A DNA stretch of 45,563 nt from Dehalococcoidia bacterium (GCA_022451925.1 JAKUNL010000021.1:1-45563); one strand, 5' to 3'. Positions 15,122 through 43,807 are shown, numbered from the stretch's first letter. Program-made: numbers and translations. The notes: generated from the sequence alone by a model not told the origin.

Positions 15122-15778
15122 TTACTCTTCAGACGAGGAAGGGACACCCTCGCTTAAAAAACGCTCCATGGCCATCTTGAACGTTTCGTATGGCTGTGCC
15201 CCAGTGAAGAGCAAGTTTCCGACCAAGAAAGTCGGAATACCGCTGATACCATAACCAAGAGCTTCTTGGTATTGGGCCATGACTTCCTTGGCGTAGATCC
15301 CTTCTTCCAGACTCTTCACCATATCATCTGCGTCCAAACCTACTTCATGGCCCACCTTATGGAGAATCTCCATCTCGCCAATGTCCTGTCGGTCCTCCCA
15401 GAACGCCTTATAGGCAGCGTGGTGAAACTCCAAGAATTTCCCATGCTGTTGAGCATATTCTGTGGCTTCCAGGGCATAAAGGGTATTAGGAGTCCTTCTA
15501 GCTGGTCGCATGATGAGACCAGCATCCTTGGCCTGGCTTCTTAGTGGCTCGGATAACTCATCTTCGGTCTCTCCTGGCCGCTGGGGACGCTCTCTGCCCT
15601 CTTTTGGGGTGTCTGGACGCAGTAGGTAGGCCCGGCCTTGCACGGCTATCTCATACTCGCTCGCCAACTTGTCGACTCTCTCCAGGCCGACGTAACACCA
15701 GGGTCAAATGTAATCGTACCAAACCGAAATATTTACCGGCCGGTTATATTGGTTGGTGGTCTGAGTATTTTCCTCCAT
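15122..15778 (-). CDS. DsbA/FrnE-family thiol oxidoreductase, probable selenoprotein (UxxC)
   Basis: GGAGG RBS, then ATG at 15778: MEENTQTTNQYNRPVNISVWYDYI-TGA-PWCYVGLERVDKL continues in frame into the listed 15122-15667 ORF (PNT, GISGIPTF, GAQP). TGA at 15704-15706 occupies the first Cys of CPWC; 218 aa. Confidence 0.88.
15671..15691 (-). promoter_or_regulatory. Putative bacterial SECIS hairpin of the DsbA-like gene
   Basis: mRNA GUCGGC-CU-GGAG-AG-A-GUCGAC stem-loop starting 12 nt after UGA; G-initiated apical loop 20 nt from UGA. Confidence 0.6.
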
Positions 15779-15906
15779 ATGGACCCTCCAATATGAAATA
15801 GACTGTTGGAATCCGCCACTAGTGGACATTTCTCGAAATCATTGCCACAGGGTACCATTTACCGAGGTAAAGTCACCACAGGAGAGTCGGCCTAACTAGA
15901 AGATGC

Positions 15907-25165: not shown

Positions 25166-25596
25166 ATATTGCTCCTAGTGTGTTTTTGTATCACGTTAAA
25201 TACATTCTTGCGACTTATAGATATGCCTAATCTACGAGTCTAGATACAGTGTGCCTTTCGATGCTAAAACCGAAGAAGAATTTTTGGAGCCCCAAGCGGC
25301 CTGGTAACTAAATCGGGACGATGGTTGACCACACATTCATCCACCCAGTATATTCCCATTACCTCAAAGGGATAGACCTAAGGGGTTGGTCTTAATCAAT
25401 AACCCCACCGGAAAAGCCCCAGAGTTCTTCAACAGAAGCATATCCGCAGTCCTCGAACCAGTACTCCTTCTCAAAGAACACTAAATTTGGTAAGTCCAAC
25501 GGTTATATGCAGATAACACCTTCCCTTCACTACAGATAAATTATAGAGGAAGATCAAATGGTTAACCCATTCTTGTTTAAAATACTTTGAGGAACA

Positions 25597-27162
25597 TTGC
25601 CAAATATACTGCAGAAACCAGACCTCATTATCAAAAACGTCATAGCATTGACCATGGACCCTTCTCAACCAAAAGCTGACGCGGTTGCGGTTGGTCAAGA
25701 CCGCATTTTGGCAGTAGGGGAATCGCTAGAAATTCAAGGGCTTGCAGGACCGGACACGCACATCGTAGACGGCCAAGGGCTGGCATTGCTTCCCGGGTTT
25801 ATTGACTCCCACATGCACCTACTATCGCTAGCTCGCACCACTCAGGAACTAGATTGTCGTCCAGACAAAGCACCATCCGTAGCATCCATCGCTTTCCGGG
25901 TGTTCGAGTGGGCAAGAATCGTACCTCCAGGGGAATGGGTTCGCTGTTACGGGTATGACGATCTGGCGTTAGAAGAACAGAGACACCCGAATCGTCACGA
26001 CCTAGATGAGATATCCCCGAAACACCCCGTACGTGTCGATCACCGCTCAGGGCATGCGACTGTGCTGAACAGTCTGGGTTTAAGGATAGCTGGAATCAAT
26101 GCTAATACCCCAGACCCTGTGGATGGGGTGATTGAACGGGACTCCAACGGCGAACCCACCGGTGTGCTGTTTGAGATGTATGGATTTTTGGCTGAAAGAG
26201 TGGACTTTGGACGAAGCCGTAACAAGCTATTGCAAGGTGTAACAGCAGCCAACAGGTTACTGTTGAGCTACGGCATCACATCACTGCAAGACGCAGGGCC
26301 AAATAACGGAATAGAAAGATGGCGGGGATTCCAAGAACTAGTTGATGATAAAACCCTACAAACCAGAATTACGATGATGGCTGGAGTCAGGCACCTTACT
26401 GACGTTATCGCATCAGGTTTTTCTTTTGGTGCCGGAAACGAAAAACTGCGGCTCGGCCACGTTAAATTAATGCTGAACGTCATCACCGGATCTCTACAAC
26501 CCAGCATGGAGGAATTACTACACTTAGCCACCGAGGCGACGCAATCCGGTTTTCCAGTGGCCATTCACTGCGTTGAACAAGAAGCAGTAGCGGCTGCCAC
26601 CAAGGTAATAACAAATTTGCCATCGCTGCCAGACGGAGTGCCACCCCACCGGATTGAACACTGCTCTGAATGCCCACCTGGTCTGCAAGACTTGGTGCGG
26701 CATAGCAGCGCAACCGTGGTTACCAACCCAGGTTTCATCCACTGGAACGGTCCCAGCTACAACAAGAACGTCGAAGTAGACTTGCAGCCCTACCTTTACC
26801 CTATCGGCCCGCTGGATGCAGCTGGAGTAAGCATTGCGTTTGGCTCCGACGCGCCAGTAATCGATCCGAACCCCTGGCCCGCGATATACAGCGCAGTGAC
26901 GCGCAAAGACTATAAAGGCGACCCTTTCCCTAAGTCTGGCGGACAGGCCGGCATACGCATAGAGTCGACAATTCGCATGCACACCATATCAGGTGCTCAG
27001 TCCGAAGGCACACAATCTTATAAAGGGTCAATTGCTCCCGGTAAACTAGCCGACTTAGTCTTAGTCGACGCAAACCCATTGACCATCCATCCTGAAGGCC
27101 TAAAAGAAATCAAGCCAAAGATGACCATCGTAGGAGGAAATATAGCCTGGGAAGGCCGCTAA
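25597..27162 (+). CDS. Amidohydrolase family 3 (YtcJ-like)
   Basis: LPGFIDSHMH, SGH...NS, PTG...E, GITS, AIH, RIEH, GSDAP, GSIAPGKLADLV. Confidence 0.9.
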   Translation: MPNILQKPDLIIKNVIALTMDPSQPKADAVAVGQDRILAVGESLEIQGLAGPDTHIVDGQGLALLPGFIDSHMHLLSLARTTQELDCRPDKAPSVASIAFRVFEWARIVPPGEWVRCYGYDDLALEEQRHPNRHDLDEISPKHPVRVDHRSGHATVLNSLGLRIAGINANTPDPVDGVIERDSNGEPTGVLFEMYGFLAERVDFGRSRNKLLQGVTAANRLLLSYGITSLQDAGPNNGIERWRGFQELVDDKTLQTRITMMAGVRHLTDVIASGFSFGAGNEKLRLGHVKLMLNVITGSLQPSMEELLHLATEATQSGFPVAIHCVEQEAVAAATKVITNLPSLPDGVPPHRIEHCSECPPGLQDLVRHSSATVVTNPGFIHWNGPSYNKNVEVDLQPYLYPIGPLDAAGVSIAFGSDAPVIDPNPWPAIYSAVTRKDYKGDPFPKSGGQAGIRIESTIRMHTISGAQSEGTQSYKGSIAPGKLADLVLVDANPLTIHPEGLKEIKPKMTIVGGNIAWEGR

Positions 27163-31123: not shown

Positions 31124-32818
31124 ATGGAATTAACCGGCGCTGAAATAGTCTGCGAAAGCCTTCTGAAAGAGGGCGCTGATGTAATCTTTGGACTGCCTGG
31201 TGGTGCGGTGCTTCCCCTATATGGGGCTCTCGCCAACTACCCGAAAATACGCCACATCTTAGTCCGCCACGAACAGGCCGCTGCCATGGCTGCAGACGGA
31301 TACGCCCGCGCCACCGGCAAGGCTGGAGTCTGCGTCGCAACGTCTGGCCCAGGAGCGACCAACCTAGTCACCGGCATCGCCGCAGCCCAAATGGACTCGG
31401 TACCTATGGTCGCCATTACCGGCCAAGTCCCCAGGCCTTACATAGGCACAGACGCCTTCCAAGAGACCGATGTTACCGGCGTGACGCTCCCAATCACCAA
31501 GCACAACATCCTGGTCATGAAAGTAGAAGACGTAGCTCAGGCTATCCATGACGCTTTCTACATAGCCAACAGCGGACGTCCTGGCCCAGTACTCGTGGAC
31601 ATTCCTCGAGACGTTTTACTAGGTGCAAAGACCGAGTTTATATGGCCTGAAACCCACAAACTTCCCGGCTATAGGATTCCAGGTCCAGCCGACGAAACCG
31701 AGGTAATCGCCGCCGCTGCATTAATCAACCAGTCCCAACGTCCATTAATCATGGCTGGTCACGGTATGCTGATATCCCATGCATATTCTCTGATGACCGA
31801 GATGGCCGAGAAGGCCCAAATTCCGGTTATCACAACATTACTCGGAATCAGCTCTATTGCATCAGATCATGAACTTAATCTGGGTATGTCCGGTATGCAC
31901 GGCATGGCCTACGCCAACTTGGCCATTGATGAGGCCGACCTGATCATTGGTTTGGGTATGCGGTTCGACGACCGCGTTACAGGAAGGATTTCAGCCTTTG
32001 CGCCCAACGCCAAATTCGTCCACGTGGACATCGACGCATCGGAGATTGACAAAAATGTCCAGACCGACATTGGTGTCTGCGGTGACCTGAAATCAGTCAT
32101 GGAACAATTGCTTCCCAAGGTGGAGCCGAACGTTCATATTGACTGGCTCAGGCACATCCAGGAATTGAAGGATCAACATCCGTCTCACATAGTTCGGCAA
32201 TCAGAAGAGTTGCTACCTCAGTATGTTCTCCAACGTCTGACGGAAGTCACTCAAGGGCATGGCATAGTCGTAACGGGTGTAGGACAGCACCAGATGTGGG
32301 CCGCCCAGCATTGTCTCTTCAGGGAACCTAACACCTTCATAACCTCTGGCGGATTGGGAACCATGGGATTCGAAGTCCCCGCTGCCTTAGGGGCCCAGGT
32401 GGGCCGCCCCGATACCACTGTCTGGTCAGTCTGCGGCGACGGGGGGTTCCAAATGACCATGTGCGATATCGCTACTGCCGTTGAGAGCGGGGCAGACGTT
32501 AAGTTTGCCATATTGAACAATAAAAACTTAGGCATGGTTCACCAGTTGCAGGACGTGTTCTTCGAGAAAGATTACATGGCTAGCGAGTTCTCGGCCAACC
32601 CCGACTTCGTAAAAATTGCCGAAGCCTACGGAATCCGCGGCATCCGCGTCACTAAACAAGAAGAAGTGGTAGATGCGGTTCAACAAGCCATGGAGACCGC
32701 GGGTCCAGTAATTGTAGACTTTATGGTAAAAGAAGACGAGATTGTCTTCCCATTCATACCGTCCGGCCAATCAGTAAACGAGATGCTAGAAGAGCCAGCT
32801 CATAACGGGACTTCCTAG
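31124..32818 (+). CDS. ilvB: Acetolactate synthase large subunit
   Basis: FGLPGG, RHEQ, TSGPGATN, FQE, RFDDR, GQHQM, SGGLGTMG, GDGGFQM, NN..LGMV. Confidence 0.96.
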   Translation: MELTGAEIVCESLLKEGADVIFGLPGGAVLPLYGALANYPKIRHILVRHEQAAAMAADGYARATGKAGVCVATSGPGATNLVTGIAAAQMDSVPMVAITGQVPRPYIGTDAFQETDVTGVTLPITKHNILVMKVEDVAQAIHDAFYIANSGRPGPVLVDIPRDVLLGAKTEFIWPETHKLPGYRIPGPADETEVIAAAALINQSQRPLIMAGHGMLISHAYSLMTEMAEKAQIPVITTLLGISSIASDHELNLGMSGMHGMAYANLAIDEADLIIGLGMRFDDRVTGRISAFAPNAKFVHVDIDASEIDKNVQTDIGVCGDLKSVMEQLLPKVEPNVHIDWLRHIQELKDQHPSHIVRQSEELLPQYVLQRLTEVTQGHGIVVTGVGQHQMWAAQHCLFREPNTFITSGGLGTMGFEVPAALGAQVGRPDTTVWSVCGDGGFQMTMCDIATAVESGADVKFAILNNKNLGMVHQLQDVFFEKDYMASEFSANPDFVKIAEAYGIRGIRVTKQEEVVDAVQQAMETAGPVIVDFMVKEDEIVFPFIPSGQSVNEMLEEPAHNGTS

Positions 32819-38167: not shown

Positions 38168-39157
38168 CTAAACTAGCTTCATCTGGAAACCGCTATCTTG
38201 CCGCTGGCTCTTGGTGTTCAGATGCACCGCAGGATAACCCAACTCACGAAGGCGGCCTGACAACTCAGGGAACCCATTCACCGTATAAACATGATTTGGT
38301 GAAACAGCCTGAACATATTCCACCAACTCGTTAAAATCGGGATGATCACTATAAGGCAGACTGGCGTCGGCTGACCTGCCCCAAGGCATACTGCCAGAGG
38401 TCGCCCAGCCGGTCATCTCCAAAGTGCGCTTGCCACGGAATTCTTTCAGGGCTTCACGCCGTTTCCCTGGGGGGAACATCAGGATCCAACCTTCCGGCCA
38501 TATACCTTCAAACAGATTCACCTGGCCGGGAAATTTCACCCCTGATTCCAAATATATCTGGGTTCCCAGATATATACTTTTTTCCACCATAACATCAAAA
38601 CCCTCACCCAACAGATGGTGCAGCAATTCTTGCGATTTGCCCAAGCGCCAGCCCTTGATCACCGGTCGGTACCCTTGAGAAAGCCACATCCTCAATGTGT
38701 TGTAGGCTGTCTCAAGAACTTGTTCTTCAGGAGGGAACACATACTCCGGGCGTCCATAAGTAGACTCAATTACCAATGTGTCGCAATGAACTGCCTCCAG
38801 CGGTTCATTGACCGGGCTTCTGCGGCTCTTGATATCTCCGGTATACAGGAGCCTTTCACCTGTCTCTTTAGATACCACTAACGCCTGAGCCGAACCAAGG
38901 CAGTGTCCAGCTGGATACAGTGTCATGGTGTAAGAAGTGGTCTCATACGGTTCATGATAGGTAAGTAGAATCGGGTCGGATTTTTTAAGGTAATCGCCAA
39001 GCAGATTAGCGGTTTCGCGTGTGAGAACTGGTCGATTATGGCGTGCAGTGTGATCGGAATGGGCATGGGAAATCAGGCTGAATTCACGCTTCCTGGTTGA
39101 ATCCATCCAAAGATCCAAATCAGGCAAATAGACTCCGCTTCTGAACTCTGCCTGCAC
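38168..39157 (-). CDS. MBL-fold beta-CASP nuclease (DNA-ligase-associated exonuclease / SNM1-like)
   Basis: SHAHSDH, AGHCLGS, YTGD, ESTYG, LGKSQ, TGW, YSDH motifs; likely GTG start at 39157 (ORF open to 39190). Confidence 0.85.
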   Translation of the reverse strand: MQAEFRSGVYLPDLDLWMDSTRKREFSLISHAHSDHTARHNRPVLTRETANLLGDYLKKSDPILLTYHEPYETTSYTMTLYPAGHCLGSAQALVVSKETGERLLYTGDIKSRRSPVNEPLEAVHCDTLVIESTYGRPEYVFPPEEQVLETAYNTLRMWLSQGYRPVIKGWRLGKSQELLHHLLGEGFDVMVEKSIYLGTQIYLESGVKFPGQVNLFEGIWPEGWILMFPPGKRREALKEFRGKRTLEMTGWATSGSMPWGRSADASLPYSDHPDFNELVEYVQAVSPNHVYTVNGFPELSGRLRELGYPAVHLNTKSQRQDSGFQMKLV

Positions 39158-39360
39158 TACACACCCCCCATCAGTGATTCTAGTGAACACCCAATAAGAA
39201 TCTCTGAAGACAACTCAGCCGAGTATATCATGGTGTTCTTGGTTTCCAATCCGTCCCACGTGTCACAAATATTGGTGTCTAGTGGTCAATTGTGAGGTAT
39301 AATCTGCGCGCATGGGCTCTATATCTATGACGCTCAAATCTTAATTAAAAGGGTGAGAAT

Positions 39361-39825
39361 ATGCCGGGTCAAGTTGGCGAAGTAGCTCCCGAATTTAAAC
39401 TCCCTTCCGGTGATGGGGATATATCACTAAGTGATTACAGGGGCAAGAAGATAGTTGTCCTATCTTTCCACGTGTTCGATTTCACCGCTGGTTGAACGAC
39501 ACAAGCAACTTCGTTTCGTTCAGAGTACAAACGGTACGAGGATAGTAATGCCCAGGTTCTGGGCATAAGCTGCGATACAGTCCCTTCACACAAAGCATGG
39601 AGCACAGCAATGGGTGGTCTTCCCTACCCTGAATTGTCCGACTTTCACCCTAAGGGTGAAGCGAGTAAGGCTTACGATCTTTACAACGAAGAAAGGGGAG
39701 CTAGCAAGCGGGCCGTTATCATCATTGATAAAGAAGGCGTGGTTCAGTTCCGCGAGGAATATGAACCAGGGACTCTGCCAGACCCGGTTGATATATTTGA
39801 GGTAGTTGACAATCTAAACAAATAA
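39361..39825 (+). CDS. AhpE/AhpC-TSA peroxiredoxin, probable selenoprotein (TxxU)
   Basis: ATG 39361: MPGQVGEVAPEFKLPSGDGDISLSDYRGKKIVVLSFHVFDFTAG-TGA-TTQATSFRSEYKRYEDSNAQVLGISCD... continues in frame into the listed 39610-39825 ORF (SDFHP, SKRAVIIIDKEG). TGA at 39493-39495 is the peroxidatic position; 154 aa. Confidence 0.88.
39509..39541 (+). promoter_or_regulatory. Putative SECIS hairpin of the peroxiredoxin gene
   Basis: CUUCGU/ACGAGG plus CGUU/AACG (or UCGUUU/AAACGG) stem around a CAGAG loop, starting 13-15 nt after UGA. Confidence 0.45.
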
Positions 39826-39857
39826 CCAGTTCAGTAATTCCAGAGGCCCCAGTAAGC

Positions 39858-39888
39858 AAAAGGCGCCCCAAAACATAAGGCGCCTTTT
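39858..39888. terminator. Intrinsic terminator after the peroxiredoxin
   Basis: AAAAGGCGCC...GGCGCCTTTT inverted repeat. Confidence 0.7.
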
Positions 39889-39958
39889 AGTTGCCATTTT
39901 TGAACTCATGATTTATGTAAAGTCATTCACTAGTCATGCGACTGCTCATAATTCAGTA

Positions 39959-39992
39959 AAAACAGCCGCTCCCTAATTGGAGCGGCTGTTTT
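39959..39992. terminator. Intrinsic terminator after greA
   Basis: AAAACAGCCGCTCC/GGAGCGGCTGTTTT perfect repeat. Confidence 0.82.
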
Positions 39993-40022: not shown

Positions 40023-40850
40023 CTAACCAGTTATACGTTGAACCAGATACCGGAGGGTGCCTTTGGGAACATTGATGGTAACTTCCTCACCGACCGTTCG
40101 GTCAAGTAATGCCTGACCAACTGGAGAAGTGGTGGAAATCTTACCTTCCGAGACATCAGCTTCGCGGACGTCAACAAGCGTATAAGCCACAGTTTTACCG
40201 GAGTTGGTATCCTTCAGAGTCACCTTGGCACCGACTGCCGAGCGAGCCACCTTAGATGAAACCCCCTCTGGTAGTATTTGAGCATTGTTAATGCTAGCTT
40301 CCAGCTCACGGATACGGAGTTCAACGATGCCTTGTTGGTCTTTGGCGGCGTCCAAGGGTGCATTTTCACGGAAATCCTTGTCCGCCATGGCCCTTTTAAT
40401 ATCCTCCAAAACCAGGGCTCGCTGATCCTTGAGGTCATCCAATTGGCTGACTAGCCGGTCGTACCCCTCTTGACTCAATTGGCTGCCAGTGGAACCGGCG
40501 CGGGAGTTTGTGCGGGTAGTAGTCTTAGTAGTCGTGGCCGTGCGTCGAGTGCGAGGGACTCTGAGGTGGGATGCCAGTCCGTTTTCAATCCACCCTTGAT
40601 CCTTCCAGTAGGCAAGGAAGACCTTCACAGGGCCTAAACGACTGGCAGATTCGGCTCCACCAAGGCCTATTTGTTGCGCATATTCAGCAACTTCCGACGG
40701 GGCGAGCTCGGAGACTTTACGCTCTCGTCCGCACCAGGCAACAAAACGGCCTAGCTCTTGATGACTCTGCTGACCTGTTTTGGGGGATTTCTTAGCGGCC
40801 ACGAAATGGGTCAGTGCTTCAGAAATTAATGGAATCTGCTCGGTCGTCAC
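40023..40850 (-). CDS. greA: Transcription elongation factor GreA with extra N-terminal domain
   Basis: C-terminal ~150 aa: EGY..L..L, DFRENA..DAAK, RIRELE, ISTTSPVGQALL, VPKG. N-terminal ~100 aa helical domain plus Thr/Arg-rich linker; GGAGG RBS. Confidence 0.9.
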   Translation of the reverse strand: MTTEQIPLISEALTHFVAAKKSPKTGQQSHQELGRFVAWCGRERKVSELAPSEVAEYAQQIGLGGAESASRLGPVKVFLAYWKDQGWIENGLASHLRVPRTRRTATTTKTTTRTNSRAGSTGSQLSQEGYDRLVSQLDDLKDQRALVLEDIKRAMADKDFRENAPLDAAKDQQGIVELRIRELEASINNAQILPEGVSSKVARSAVGAKVTLKDTNSGKTVAYTLVDVREADVSEGKISTTSPVGQALLDRTVGEEVTINVPKGTLRYLVQRITG

Positions 40851-41533: not shown

Positions 41534-43807
41534 ATGAGTCCAAATAGACAACCCCCTGCTGGCTCCTCCCTCGCTGGCCCAACGTCTGTACCAGCATTCG
41601 TAAAAGAACTAGACCGTTTGGTTAGCTTGGCCCAGCAGGGCCACAAAGCTGACTCAGCATTTAACAATCCTTCCCAAGAATGGCTAGTTGACCATATGAA
41701 CGTGCTCCAAGACCTTTCAGAGGTGGAGCAGCAAGCTTTCTTGACGGAAGCAGAAATCATAGACAAAGAAGCAGAAGTAGCGAATGCAGCTGGAAGAGCA
41801 GCTAAGCGTGCCTGGCCTGGAGTGGTCATCAGACTAGACACCGGTGGCTACGCATTCTTTAGTCAATTGGGTGTGGTACGCCGACCAGACCTCACAATGT
41901 ACTTCATAGACGGGTTCGCCAAGAACCGCGATGGTGTCGTATTCAGTAGCGAAAACCAGGAGTTATTCACAGAGGTTTTTGCCTACATCAATAAATATAT
42001 GGAAGCAAAACTTGCCGCGGGTGACACAATCGTTCAGTCAGATCGCCAGGTGGCCGATGCACCCGGACGATCATTCCATGCTCGCCAGATGCTATTTGGC
42101 ACCAAATACATGCAGATTCCCATGATGTGGCGGCAGCTTACATTCCCAGGCACTGAAGAGATGAAAGGACAGAAGCCAGACATCCTCGAGGTTTCCTTAC
42201 CTCACTGGATGGAAGACCTGGGATTACCGGAAGAGCTGAAGAAACGACTTACTGACGAAGGATTCACCCAATTGGTCTTCAAAGCCCCCACCCGCGGACT
42301 CTCACTTCACTTAGGCTTTGACTATGTTGGCGAACACAAGATGGGTCCTTTGTCCATCGCCATGTTCCTAGTCAAAGAGAAAAATGGTTTGGCGATACAA
42401 GCAGCCCTGAGCATGGCTAGGGCCAAGACCCTAGCAGGCCAAACCAAGAACACCGCTCTGATTACCGTTGGGCCATCCCTTCACGGAAAGAGCACACTGA
42501 CCATCATGCTGGAATTGGCCAACAGCGAGTTGGCTAAGAAACTTAGCTTGAAGACCGACGCAGATGAAGGCGTCTACCCGATGAACGATGACATTGTCCT
42601 GCTGCAAGAATTAAAAGACCCCATAAAAGTCACTAAGGACGGCAAACAGGCCACTATTTACTACGGCATCGACGGCACAGAAAACAATATGTACGCCATG
42701 CCGTTTGGCCTCAACCACGCAGAAGACCCCATCACGTTTGAGTCAGTTCGAGGGACAGCCCCAGACCCCAACACTGAGGAGACGTTGGAAAACGTGCCGA
42801 TCGACATGTCTTCATACAGGCCCAATTTCATGGAGAACCCTGTGCGCAACATGCGGGTGACCCTCTCCCGTAGTCGACTGGTGACCAGGAAGGGCGCCAA
42901 TGACATCCTCGGGAGGATAACCGGAGGCAGAGAGACTGCCGGCGTTCATGTACCGATGGAAGATACCGACCAAGTATTCTGGCAGGCTGTGATGCGCCAA
43001 AACACAGTTGTGCCGCCGCTCCGTCGACTGTCTGCAAATCAATACATCAGGAGTCTAATGTACGGTGAAGCGGTTCAAATGGGTGCCGCGATTGGTGTGA
43101 TTGGCCAGCCTTATGTTGAGTACTTTTCTGACCCGTTCATCATCGGCCTAGAAGACGAGAACGCCAACAACCTATACCACATCGTCAAGAAGATTGAAGA
43201 AGGTGGACTGGATCAACAGTACTTCGTATTCAACACCGGTGGAGTGGGCGCTGACAGTAATGACGCGGCTACAGGTGACAGATACAAGAAAATCCCACGG
43301 GACCTGACACTGATGCTTCAAGAAGCGTTACTCCGAGACGCTGTAAAATTCGAGTACGAAACTGAATTGGGTTCTGACGCCGCCGTTGCCATAGTCGATG
43401 AAAACGGCAATGAGGTGGTTGACCTGCGCAACGAGTGGCTGCCAAAGAACATCTACGGAGACTCCGATTACGCCCAACGCATCACTGAGTTAAGCCGCCG
43501 GAGGTTCTACGGAGAGAGTTCTGCAGATAAGGCCGGAATCCTCAGGTACACCAAGGTATTAAATAACCTATACGACCTCTCGGATATCCCAATCCCCAAC
43601 AATGAACGTGAGTTAAGCTGGCTACTTTCTTTCTACTGGAATGTGGATCAGCCTTATGACACTCTGTCGGACTTAGAAGCCCACCTCAACGAAGGTACTC
43701 AACCTGATACGGCCGTGTCGCAGAAGCTTGAAGAGATGTTTAGAGCATCTGGGGTCAGAGTACCAAGCAGTGGCCCGGCCCTATCCGCTCTGGGGCTCTC
43801 GTCCTAA
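41534..43807 (+). CDS. Divergent phosphoenolpyruvate carboxykinase (ATP)-like protein
   Basis: 757 aa; YVGEHK (cf. YAGEMKK), GPSLHGKST P-loop, NDD kinase-2, E...YA, ENV, N.R, FNTG and KIP motifs in PEPCK order. Confidence 0.65.
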   Translation: MSPNRQPPAGSSLAGPTSVPAFVKELDRLVSLAQQGHKADSAFNNPSQEWLVDHMNVLQDLSEVEQQAFLTEAEIIDKEAEVANAAGRAAKRAWPGVVIRLDTGGYAFFSQLGVVRRPDLTMYFIDGFAKNRDGVVFSSENQELFTEVFAYINKYMEAKLAAGDTIVQSDRQVADAPGRSFHARQMLFGTKYMQIPMMWRQLTFPGTEEMKGQKPDILEVSLPHWMEDLGLPEELKKRLTDEGFTQLVFKAPTRGLSLHLGFDYVGEHKMGPLSIAMFLVKEKNGLAIQAALSMARAKTLAGQTKNTALITVGPSLHGKSTLTIMLELANSELAKKLSLKTDADEGVYPMNDDIVLLQELKDPIKVTKDGKQATIYYGIDGTENNMYAMPFGLNHAEDPITFESVRGTAPDPNTEETLENVPIDMSSYRPNFMENPVRNMRVTLSRSRLVTRKGANDILGRITGGRETAGVHVPMEDTDQVFWQAVMRQNTVVPPLRRLSANQYIRSLMYGEAVQMGAAIGVIGQPYVEYFSDPFIIGLEDENANNLYHIVKKIEEGGLDQQYFVFNTGGVGADSNDAATGDRYKKIPRDLTLMLQEALLRDAVKFEYETELGSDAAVAIVDENGNEVVDLRNEWLPKNIYGDSDYAQRITELSRRRFYGESSADKAGILRYTKVLNNLYDLSDIPIPNNERELSWLLSFYWNVDQPYDTLSDLEAHLNEGTQPDTAVSQKLEEMFRASGVRVPSSGPALSALGLSS

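Follow-up and report, generated by a model that had tools for sequence, protein, structure and literature searches.

A TGA-interrupted AhpE-type peroxiredoxin gene of a Dehalococcoidia bacterium as a probable selenoprotein gene

The reductant system of AhpE, the 1-Cys peroxiredoxin of Mycobacterium tuberculosis (Rv2238c; PDB entries 1XXU, 1XVW, 4X0X, and 5C04), is mycoredoxin/mycothiol. Among the peroxiredoxins carrying selenocysteine (Sec, U), PrxU of Eubacterium acidaminophilum is reportedly one for which Sec has been shown experimentally. Sec peroxiredoxins with a TxxU motif are established both experimentally and by genomics (PMC1794560, PMC2398784, PMC9312934, PMC13188914), and the Global Ocean Sampling data yielded 253 Sec-containing TxxU peroxiredoxin sequences. 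Here we describe a gene on a 45,563-nt stretch of DNA from a Dehalococcoidia bacterium (GCA_022451925.1 JAKUNL010000021.1:1-45563), referred to below as the window. Positions 39361 to 39825 of the plus strand very probably constitute a single functional gene whose product is an AhpE-type peroxiredoxin of 154 residues. Its predicted peroxidatic residue is selenocysteine, for which the TGA at 39493-39495 is the codon. A first-pass annotation of the window had regarded TxxU peroxiredoxins as a recognised bacterial selenoprotein family, and they are indeed listed as such in Table 2 of PMC2398784 and in a table of PMC13188914.

Translation from the ATG at 39361 gives a frame of 154 codons that ends with the TAA at 39823-39825 and contains one internal stop codon, the TGA at codon 45. 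The frame and the position of the TGA within DFTAG*T were found as the first-pass annotation had described them. Its remark that the open reading frame (ORF) track shows only the last 71 aa is explained by translation table 11, which splits the frame into a 44-aa ORF (39361-39495) and a 71-aa ORF (39610-39825). Besides the translation, the assignment of 39361-39825 as one selenoprotein coding sequence draws on a Pfam match (PF00578), the AhpE structures in the PDB, an AlphaFold2 model, and the ratio of nonsynonymous to synonymous substitution rates (dN/dS), all presented below. Direct reading of the DNA upstream of the ATG revealed a purine-rich, Shine-Dalgarno-like stretch, AGGGTGAG (39350-39357, plus strand), a putative ribosome-binding site. 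In the orthologous loci, the in-frame residues leading up to the conserved Met read K-G-G/E-N/S-M, which means that the purine-rich leader is conserved.

A scan of species-representative genomes gave 224 matched stretches, 211 of which encode relatives, and the best 80 of these 211 were analyzed. The 80 loci (L001 to L080) come from metagenome-assembled genomes (MAGs) of Dehalococcoidia, SAR202, or Chloroflexota, each a different species-level genome, and show 66-93% identity; together with the window they make up the 81 sequences considered below. An in-frame TGA was present at the same alignment column in all 80 loci and in the window, and the 43-45 codons upstream of it were conserved in frame, as was the start Met. 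Median pairwise dN/dS values (Nei-Gojobori method) were 0.122 for the part of the gene upstream of the TGA (2812 of 3240 pairs usable) and 0.139 for the part downstream of it (3053 of 3240 pairs usable); for the window and its closest locus, the values were 0.128 and 0.037, respectively. The TGA is conserved, with coding constraint on both of its flanks, far beyond chance. The first-pass annotation had named relaxed selection downstream of the TGA and a base-calling error at 39493-39495 as outcomes that would speak against a selenoprotein gene. Selection was found to be purifying on both sides and the same TGA occurs in 80 independent assemblies, which excludes both of these explanations as well as a pseudogene.

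The read-through product matched the AhpC/TSA domain PF00578 with an E value of 6.5e-36 and 123.4 bits (cutoff, 26) over residues 5-130, corresponding to profile positions 1-123 of 124, and the domain therefore spans the TGA. Its best PDB relatives by sequence were the M. tuberculosis AhpE entries (E values of 5.9e-26 to 1.3e-24, residues 5-141). An AlphaFold2 model (57 aligned sequences) had a mean predicted local distance difference test score of 96.6 and superposed on the AhpE structures with template modeling (TM) scores of 0.94-0.95 in both directions and a root mean square deviation of 1.1-1.4 Å, AhpE being the best match by TM-score. AhpE is the closest match in sequence and fold over the full length, and the product lacks a C-terminal extension, in agreement with the AhpE subfamily. 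These results, together with the alignment of U45 with C45 of AhpE, bear out the description of the gene in the first-pass annotation as an AhpE-like peroxiredoxin with TGA at the peroxidatic site. In a search of the NCBIfam profiles with the read-through product, no model reached its cutoff; the PrxU equivalog NF040737 scored 68.8 bits (cutoff, 270) and Prx-SUH NF045827 scored 28.1 bits (cutoff, 298), both below membership.

Thr42, U45, and Arg117 all occupy canonical peroxiredoxin positions in the alignment to AhpE, on an AhpE-like fold. Codon 42 (39484-39486, plus strand) encodes the active-site Thr, which pairs with T42 of AhpE and lies within the motif FT[AS]G kept in 81 of 81 sequences. 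The TGA (39493-39495, plus strand), predicted to encode the peroxidatic residue U45, pairs with C45 of AhpE, is shared by 81 of 81 sequences, and is matched by Cys in close homologues; residue 45 lies in the first turn of the model's helix 43-61. The catalytic Arg is encoded by codon 117 (39709-39711, plus strand), pairs with R116 of AhpE, and is nearly invariant in alignments A1, A2, and A4; the surrounding region, SKRAVIIIDKEG, is unbroken, as stated previously. Two further particulars of the first-pass annotation, the loss of the motif Pro in FHVFDFTAGU and the presence of a single Cys in GISCD, also held. Codon 38 (39472-39474, plus strand) places Val at the Pro position of PxxxTxxC, with FHVFDFT aligned to FFPLAFT of AhpE and V38 opposite P38. 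Val, or Leu at the adjacent position, is found throughout the 81 sequences. Where a sequence extends over both sites, position 38 is V in the near family and Pro in 118 of 159 aligned relatives overall and in 113 of 133 in one set. The sole Cys of the 154-residue product, C71 (codon 71, 39571-39573, plus strand), follows directly after strand 64-70 of the model, is conserved in the clade, and is a candidate resolving Cys. It was found in 81 of 81 sequences, a count that is biased because the pattern for fetching and locating the loci included this Cys; it was also invariant in 23 of 23 near homologues from a word search and occurs in 15 Pro-containing canonical relatives.

The gene resembles the Sec peroxiredoxin family in its PF00578 domain, in the predicted Sec at the peroxidatic position of T-x-x-U, and in having Cys homologues alongside, but differs from this family and from PrxU by a score far under the NF040737 cutoff, its short AhpE-type length of ~154 residues, Val in place of Pro, Cys71, and its Dehalococcoidia/SAR202 host. 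With M. tuberculosis AhpE it has in common the length, an end-to-end alignment, Thr42, position 45, and the Arg in place. It differs from AhpE in overall sequence (32-33% identity), in the predicted Sec for Cys45, in His-Val for Phe37-Pro38, and in Cys71, where AhpE has Val.

Near homologues numbered at least 120, and the figures that follow refer to the matches listed. Ninety-two of the 120 begin beyond position 45, as is commonly seen when a selenoprotein gene is truncated at the TGA. In 26 homologues, the sequence includes the active site as well as position 71. At the site in question, 10 of them have W and 7 have C, both groups in the V38/C71 background; 5 are canonical with Pro, Cys, and Val, and the remaining 4 have L, K, C, or G. 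One of the W forms, P0002, shares 99% identity with the protein of the window. As the window codon is TGA, at least this W represents a TGA translated under another code. The first-pass annotation had proposed an alignment of orthologues for Sec/Cys pairs, and Cys was indeed found at the TGA position in close homologues as well as in AhpE. When U is scored as C, the Cys form P0003 and the L009 read-through protein agree at 150 of 153 positions. In a FastTree phylogeny calculated with the site masked, Cys forms were nested within the TGA clade, and more distant relatives and outgroups had Cys. P0003 grouped with L009 (support, 0.86), and the Cys forms P0013, P0015, P0016, and P0037 lay in a subclade with P0014, which has W at the site (support, 0.93). 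The direction of the Sec/Cys change is tentative, as the tree was midpoint rooted and the chosen outgroup was not monophyletic.

Two of these homologues deserve separate mention. P0003 differs from L009 by D40A, T46S, and one Lys/Arg exchange near the C terminus, in addition to the Cys at the TGA; D40A and T46S lie on either side of the catalytic site. In P0009, the Sec position is occupied by Leu, whereas the near-identical P0010 and P0012 read W there. P0003 and P0009 may represent recent changes from Sec to Cys and from Sec to Leu, respectively, or errors.

In the 81 sequences, synonymous sites were unusually conserved from codon -1 to about codon +23 relative to the TGA. The relative third-position entropy was 0 for Gly-1, 0.12 for Thr+5, 0.10 for Phe+7, 0.14 for Arg+13, 0 for Asn+18, 0.27 for Ala+19, 0.17 for Gln+20, 0 for Leu+22, and 0.17 for Gly+23, compared to a mean of 0.69 elsewhere. 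A synonymous-entropy test over the pre-set range of -2 to +17 gave a P value of 0.034 from 9 sites only. Two hairpins downstream of the TGA are candidates for a Sec insertion sequence (SECIS). Hairpin A (39509-39541, plus strand), the candidate by position, is formed by a lower stem (39509-39513/39537-39541), a 5-bp upper stem (39516-39520/39530-39534), and a 9-nt loop (39521-39529) that begins 25 nt past the UGA. It is the minimum free energy (MFE) fold of the 41 nt from 39505 to 39545 (-10 kcal/mol, z score of -2.32) and also the MFE fold in several loci. In the upper stem, 90% of the cells are paired, and this stem is present in the 96-nt MFE fold of 57 of the 81 sequences. In 79 distinct rows, the pair formed by columns 30 and 42 was GC in 54 cases, CG in 11, UA in 4, UG in 4, and another combination in 6; a second covarying pair was CG in 49, UA in 6, UG in 2, and another combination in 22. 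None of 500 shuffles matched the observed paired cells or the covariation, and slid registers reached at most 39%. The register of the lower stem differs among sub-clades.

Hairpin B (39548-39566, plus strand), the candidate by shape, consists of an 8-bp stem (39548-39555/39559-39566) and a GUU loop (39556-39558). It was present in the MFE fold of all 81 sequences, with the loop reading G-U-N, and 99.7% of its cells were paired (2 of 632 unpaired). Five of its pairs are invariant and three vary to G-U only. The synonymous sites of the stem are nearly frozen, whereas the third-codon site of the loop is free (1.94 of 2 bits). When folded alone, hairpin B had a z score of -3.21.

Two observations concern the immediate surroundings of the TGA. 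All 81 sequences share the context GGT-TGA-AC (columns 39490-39497), and the Gly directly ahead of the TGA is always encoded by GGT. In the RNAalifold structure, the U of this GGT pairs with a Gln codon three codons further on, at its variable A/G, and a small hairpin encloses the UGA.

Several results weigh against the assignment of these hairpins to Sec insertion or, more generally, against a Sec peroxiredoxin at this locus. The published bacterial SECIS (bSECIS) model calls for a loop of 3-9 nt, a stem of 4-16 bp, a G in the first two loop positions, and a distance of 16-37 nt from the UGA to the loop (PMC13188914), and neither hairpin satisfies it by itself. Hairpin A fits in distance, stem, and loop size, but the first G of its loop in the window is at position 3; hairpin B fits in stem, loop, and G-U, but the distance from the UGA to its loop is 60 nt. 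Hairpin A was proposed by eye and its pairs were counted afterwards; RNAalifold applied to 63 columns gave a weak consensus (-2.02 kcal/mol) with 0 compensatory pairs and did not find hairpin A. Hairpin B is devoid of double compensatory changes and, being known from TGA forms alone, may serve something other than Sec. When 53 nt or 96 nt of the window itself were folded, a competing hairpin containing the UGA (39493-39522) was preferred in the MFE structure; it was rejected as a conserved element because its 3' arm is lost in most loci. A 76-nt fold was no better than shuffles (z score of 0.02). No Rfam family matched the downstream RNA, where E values up to 10 gave only terminator-like noise at 39856-39900. 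With respect to the Sec machinery, none of selA, selB, selC, and selD was seen in the 45.6-kb window, and the search for tRNA-Sec found no tRNA of any kind in the window or in L001 to L060, the part of the loci covered by the scan. The ORFs from the flanks of the 80 loci form 325 clusters, and no SelA, SelB, or SelD was detected among 72 length-selected representatives compared with NCBIfam at E values up to 1e-40. Finally, the PxxxTxxC motif is incomplete, the universal Pro being absent and Val38 standing in its place in the window.

Compared with the consensus bacterial SECIS of the bSECISearch model (PMC13188914), the locus is similar in having stem-loops within the coding sequence downstream of the predicted Sec UGA; it is different in that no single hairpin meets all constraints and that the more conserved hairpin, B, is the more distant one. 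According to the same source, a subset of selenoprotein genes deviates from the canonical SECIS model, and a canonical SECIS is recorded for only 87.4% of the entries in BSepDB (PMC13326102).

Sec decoding by the host is supported indirectly by a second TGA-interrupted gene in the window and by the selenoprotein-rich lineage. The second gene is an ORF for a DsbA-like protein of thioredoxin fold (15122-15829, minus strand) with a TGA at 15704-15706 in a U-P-W-C motif; it is probably the first of the hidden selenoproteins numbered in the first-pass annotation. PF01323 matches residues 34-221 of its product, across the TGA, and among the matches listed, 120 of 120 homologues are truncated to 156-184 aa, with their first residue past the TGA (63-77% query coverage), and some of them are named SAR202. 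DsbA with UxxC and peroxiredoxin with TxxU are both listed as marine selenoprotein families (PMC2398784, Table 2). The ten bacteria with the most selenoprotein genes in BSepDB include two Dehalococcoidia MAGs, which have 49 and 46 such genes (PMC13326102, Table 2), and in a sponge microbiome SelA and SelB were described to co-occur in most symbiont bins (PMC5649159). Folds downstream of the TGA of the DsbA-like gene were no better than shuffles (z scores of 1.18 and 0.47). Another selenoprotein candidate, an amidohydrolase ORF (25558-27162) extended N-terminally through a TGA, was rejected, as its Pfam domain starts at residue 69 and the TGA is at residue 11.

Three other explanations of the interrupted frame have to be weighed. 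An ordinary amino acid (Trp, Gly, or Cys) rather than Sec could be inserted at the UGA, through a reassigned code or by near-cognate suppression. This would agree with the W given at the codon by public gene callers in at least 10 near homologues, including the one 99% identical to the window protein, and with the Sec machinery not being seen in the window or the scanned flanks. However, among 37 long ORFs of the window, which has a G+C content of 50.7%, 18 end with TAA, 14 with TAG, and 5 with TGA, the rarest stop codon, and the window ORFs contain the Trp codon TGG 139 times. Use of TGA as a terminator and TGG for Trp indicates that the code is not reassigned and is neither table 4 nor table 25. 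Moreover, the site is that of the family's catalytic Cys, close relatives have Cys there and never a Trp verifiable in the DNA, conserved hairpins follow the TGA, and the lineage has been published as rich in selenoproteins (PMC13326102). We consider decoding as an ordinary amino acid very improbable. A pseudogene or an assembly error, with the 71-aa ORF (39610-39825) expressed alone or nothing expressed at all, has a probability close to nil. Although table 11 yields only the 44-aa and 71-aa pieces and most database entries are short (92 of the 120 matches listed), all 80 loci, each of a different species-level genome, share the TGA. The 44 upstream codons, which would be left untranslated, show a dN/dS of 0.122, the start Met and the purine-rich leader are conserved, and the C-terminal piece contains neither the Thr nor the peroxidatic residue.

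The third explanation accepts a genuine selenoprotein and questions its function: the protein could be a selenol/thiol oxidoreductase or a redox sensor that uses a U45-C71 pair and acts on protein or small-molecule disulfides rather than on peroxides. V38 in place of the dominant Pro (P in 118 of 159 aligned relatives) and the invariance of Cys71 in the clade would suit such a function, as would the emphasis on PxxxTxxU in the published description of Sec peroxiredoxins (PMC13188914). Thr42 and Arg117, which activate the peroxide and the chalcogenol, are retained, however, the model superposes on AhpE at 1.1-1.4 Å, and no linked partner gene suggests another substrate. Cys71 is also present in the 15 canonical Pro-containing relatives and is therefore not peculiar to a new chemistry. 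A non-peroxidase function appears improbable to us, if less so than the two explanations above.

If the product is a Sec-containing AhpE-type peroxidase, as we favor, the downstream RNA would recruit SelB carrying Sec-tRNA(Sec), and the UGA would be read as Sec rather than as a stop codon. Hairpin A would supply the right distance from the UGA and hairpin B the right stem and G-U loop. Folded hairpin A leaves a path of ~27 nt from the UGA to the loop of hairpin B, and the two hairpins may therefore act together. In the protein, the selenolate of U45, positioned by T42 and R117, would attack the hydroperoxide to give a selenenic acid, which might be resolved either by the clade-conserved Cys71, with formation of a selenenylsulfide, or by an external thioredoxin- or glutaredoxin-type thiol reductant. 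A more far-reaching version combines a two-part SECIS, in which hairpin B binds SelB and hairpin A serves as a spacer that brings 60 nt down to ~27 nt, with a changed active site, in which Val38 and Cys71 allow an intramolecular selenenylsulfide ("Sec-Cys atypical 2-Cys"), a mechanism that is not known from AhpE-type enzymes. We regard this combination as speculative and rather unlikely.

The gene is a predicted further member of the established TxxU family, of the AhpE type and from a selenoprotein-rich lineage, and it may already be catalogued in BSepDB. Its unusual points are Val in place of the motif Pro, the conserved Cys71, and the atypical SECIS layout. In the literature searched, we found neither a Sec enzyme of the AhpE type (judged from titles and the beginnings of abstracts), nor a Val-for-Pro motif with Cys71, nor a distal frozen hairpin, and neither selenoproteins nor selenocysteine in SAR202 led to a paper on this gene. 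The main value of the analysis lies in the correction of the annotation and in the SECIS layout. Standard gene calling breaks the gene, with 92 of the 120 matches listed being post-TGA stubs and at least 10 more carrying Trp at the site. The frozen distal and the covarying proximal hairpin form a clean natural data set on the permissible distance between a bacterial SECIS and its UGA. Occurring in a fixed chromosomal context in at least 80 species-level Dehalococcoidia/SAR202 genomes, the gene suggests that its hosts depend on selenium for some of their defence against peroxides, and this apparent dependence bears on the trace-element demand of Dehalococcoidia/SAR202 communities.

The peroxiredoxin gene is monocistronic by layout, with a divergent gene for an MBL-fold protein upstream (38168-39190, minus strand) and a convergent gene for a GreA-like protein downstream (40023-40850, minus strand). 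Across the 80 loci, the GreA-like gene was found in 80, the MBL-fold gene in 75, a quinone oxidoreductase gene in 69, and a LeuA gene in 61. No thioredoxin- or glutaredoxin-like gene and no other partner gene was linked to the peroxiredoxin gene. A terminator-like hairpin with a 10-bp stem, an 11-nt loop, and a U run (39858-39888, plus strand) is located 33 nt past the stop codon; the fold of 39850-39895 had -19.4 kcal/mol and a z score of -5.42. A pattern scan for promoters and terminators found no plus-strand promoter and no terminator, the hairpin at 39858-39888 being missed because the scan permits loops of at most 8 nt.

Further observations were made in the neighbourhood and elsewhere in the window. 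A very stable 14-bp hairpin at 39959-39992 (-25.3 kcal/mol, z score of -8.11) lies between an A run and a U run just beyond the GreA-like gene, on its 3' side, and would terminate transcription from both sides. The GreA-like protein has 275 aa, with the GreA domains confined to residues 124-273 and an N-terminal extension of ~120 residues that includes a Thr/Arg-rich stretch. The ORF at 41534-43807 (plus strand), present in 38 of the 80 loci, encodes a 757-aa protein with a weak, partial match to PEPCK_ATP (E value of 2e-12, residues 129-323); a shorter ORF of the PEPCK family in L025 matched an NCBIfam PEPCK subfamily with an E value of 2.2e-119. The only Rfam match in the window at the gathering threshold was a T-box leader (RF00230; 30802-31046, plus strand; 97.1 bits versus 93), which precedes an ORF for the large subunit of acetolactate synthase (31124-32818), followed by ilvN-like, ilvC-like, and leuA-like ORFs.

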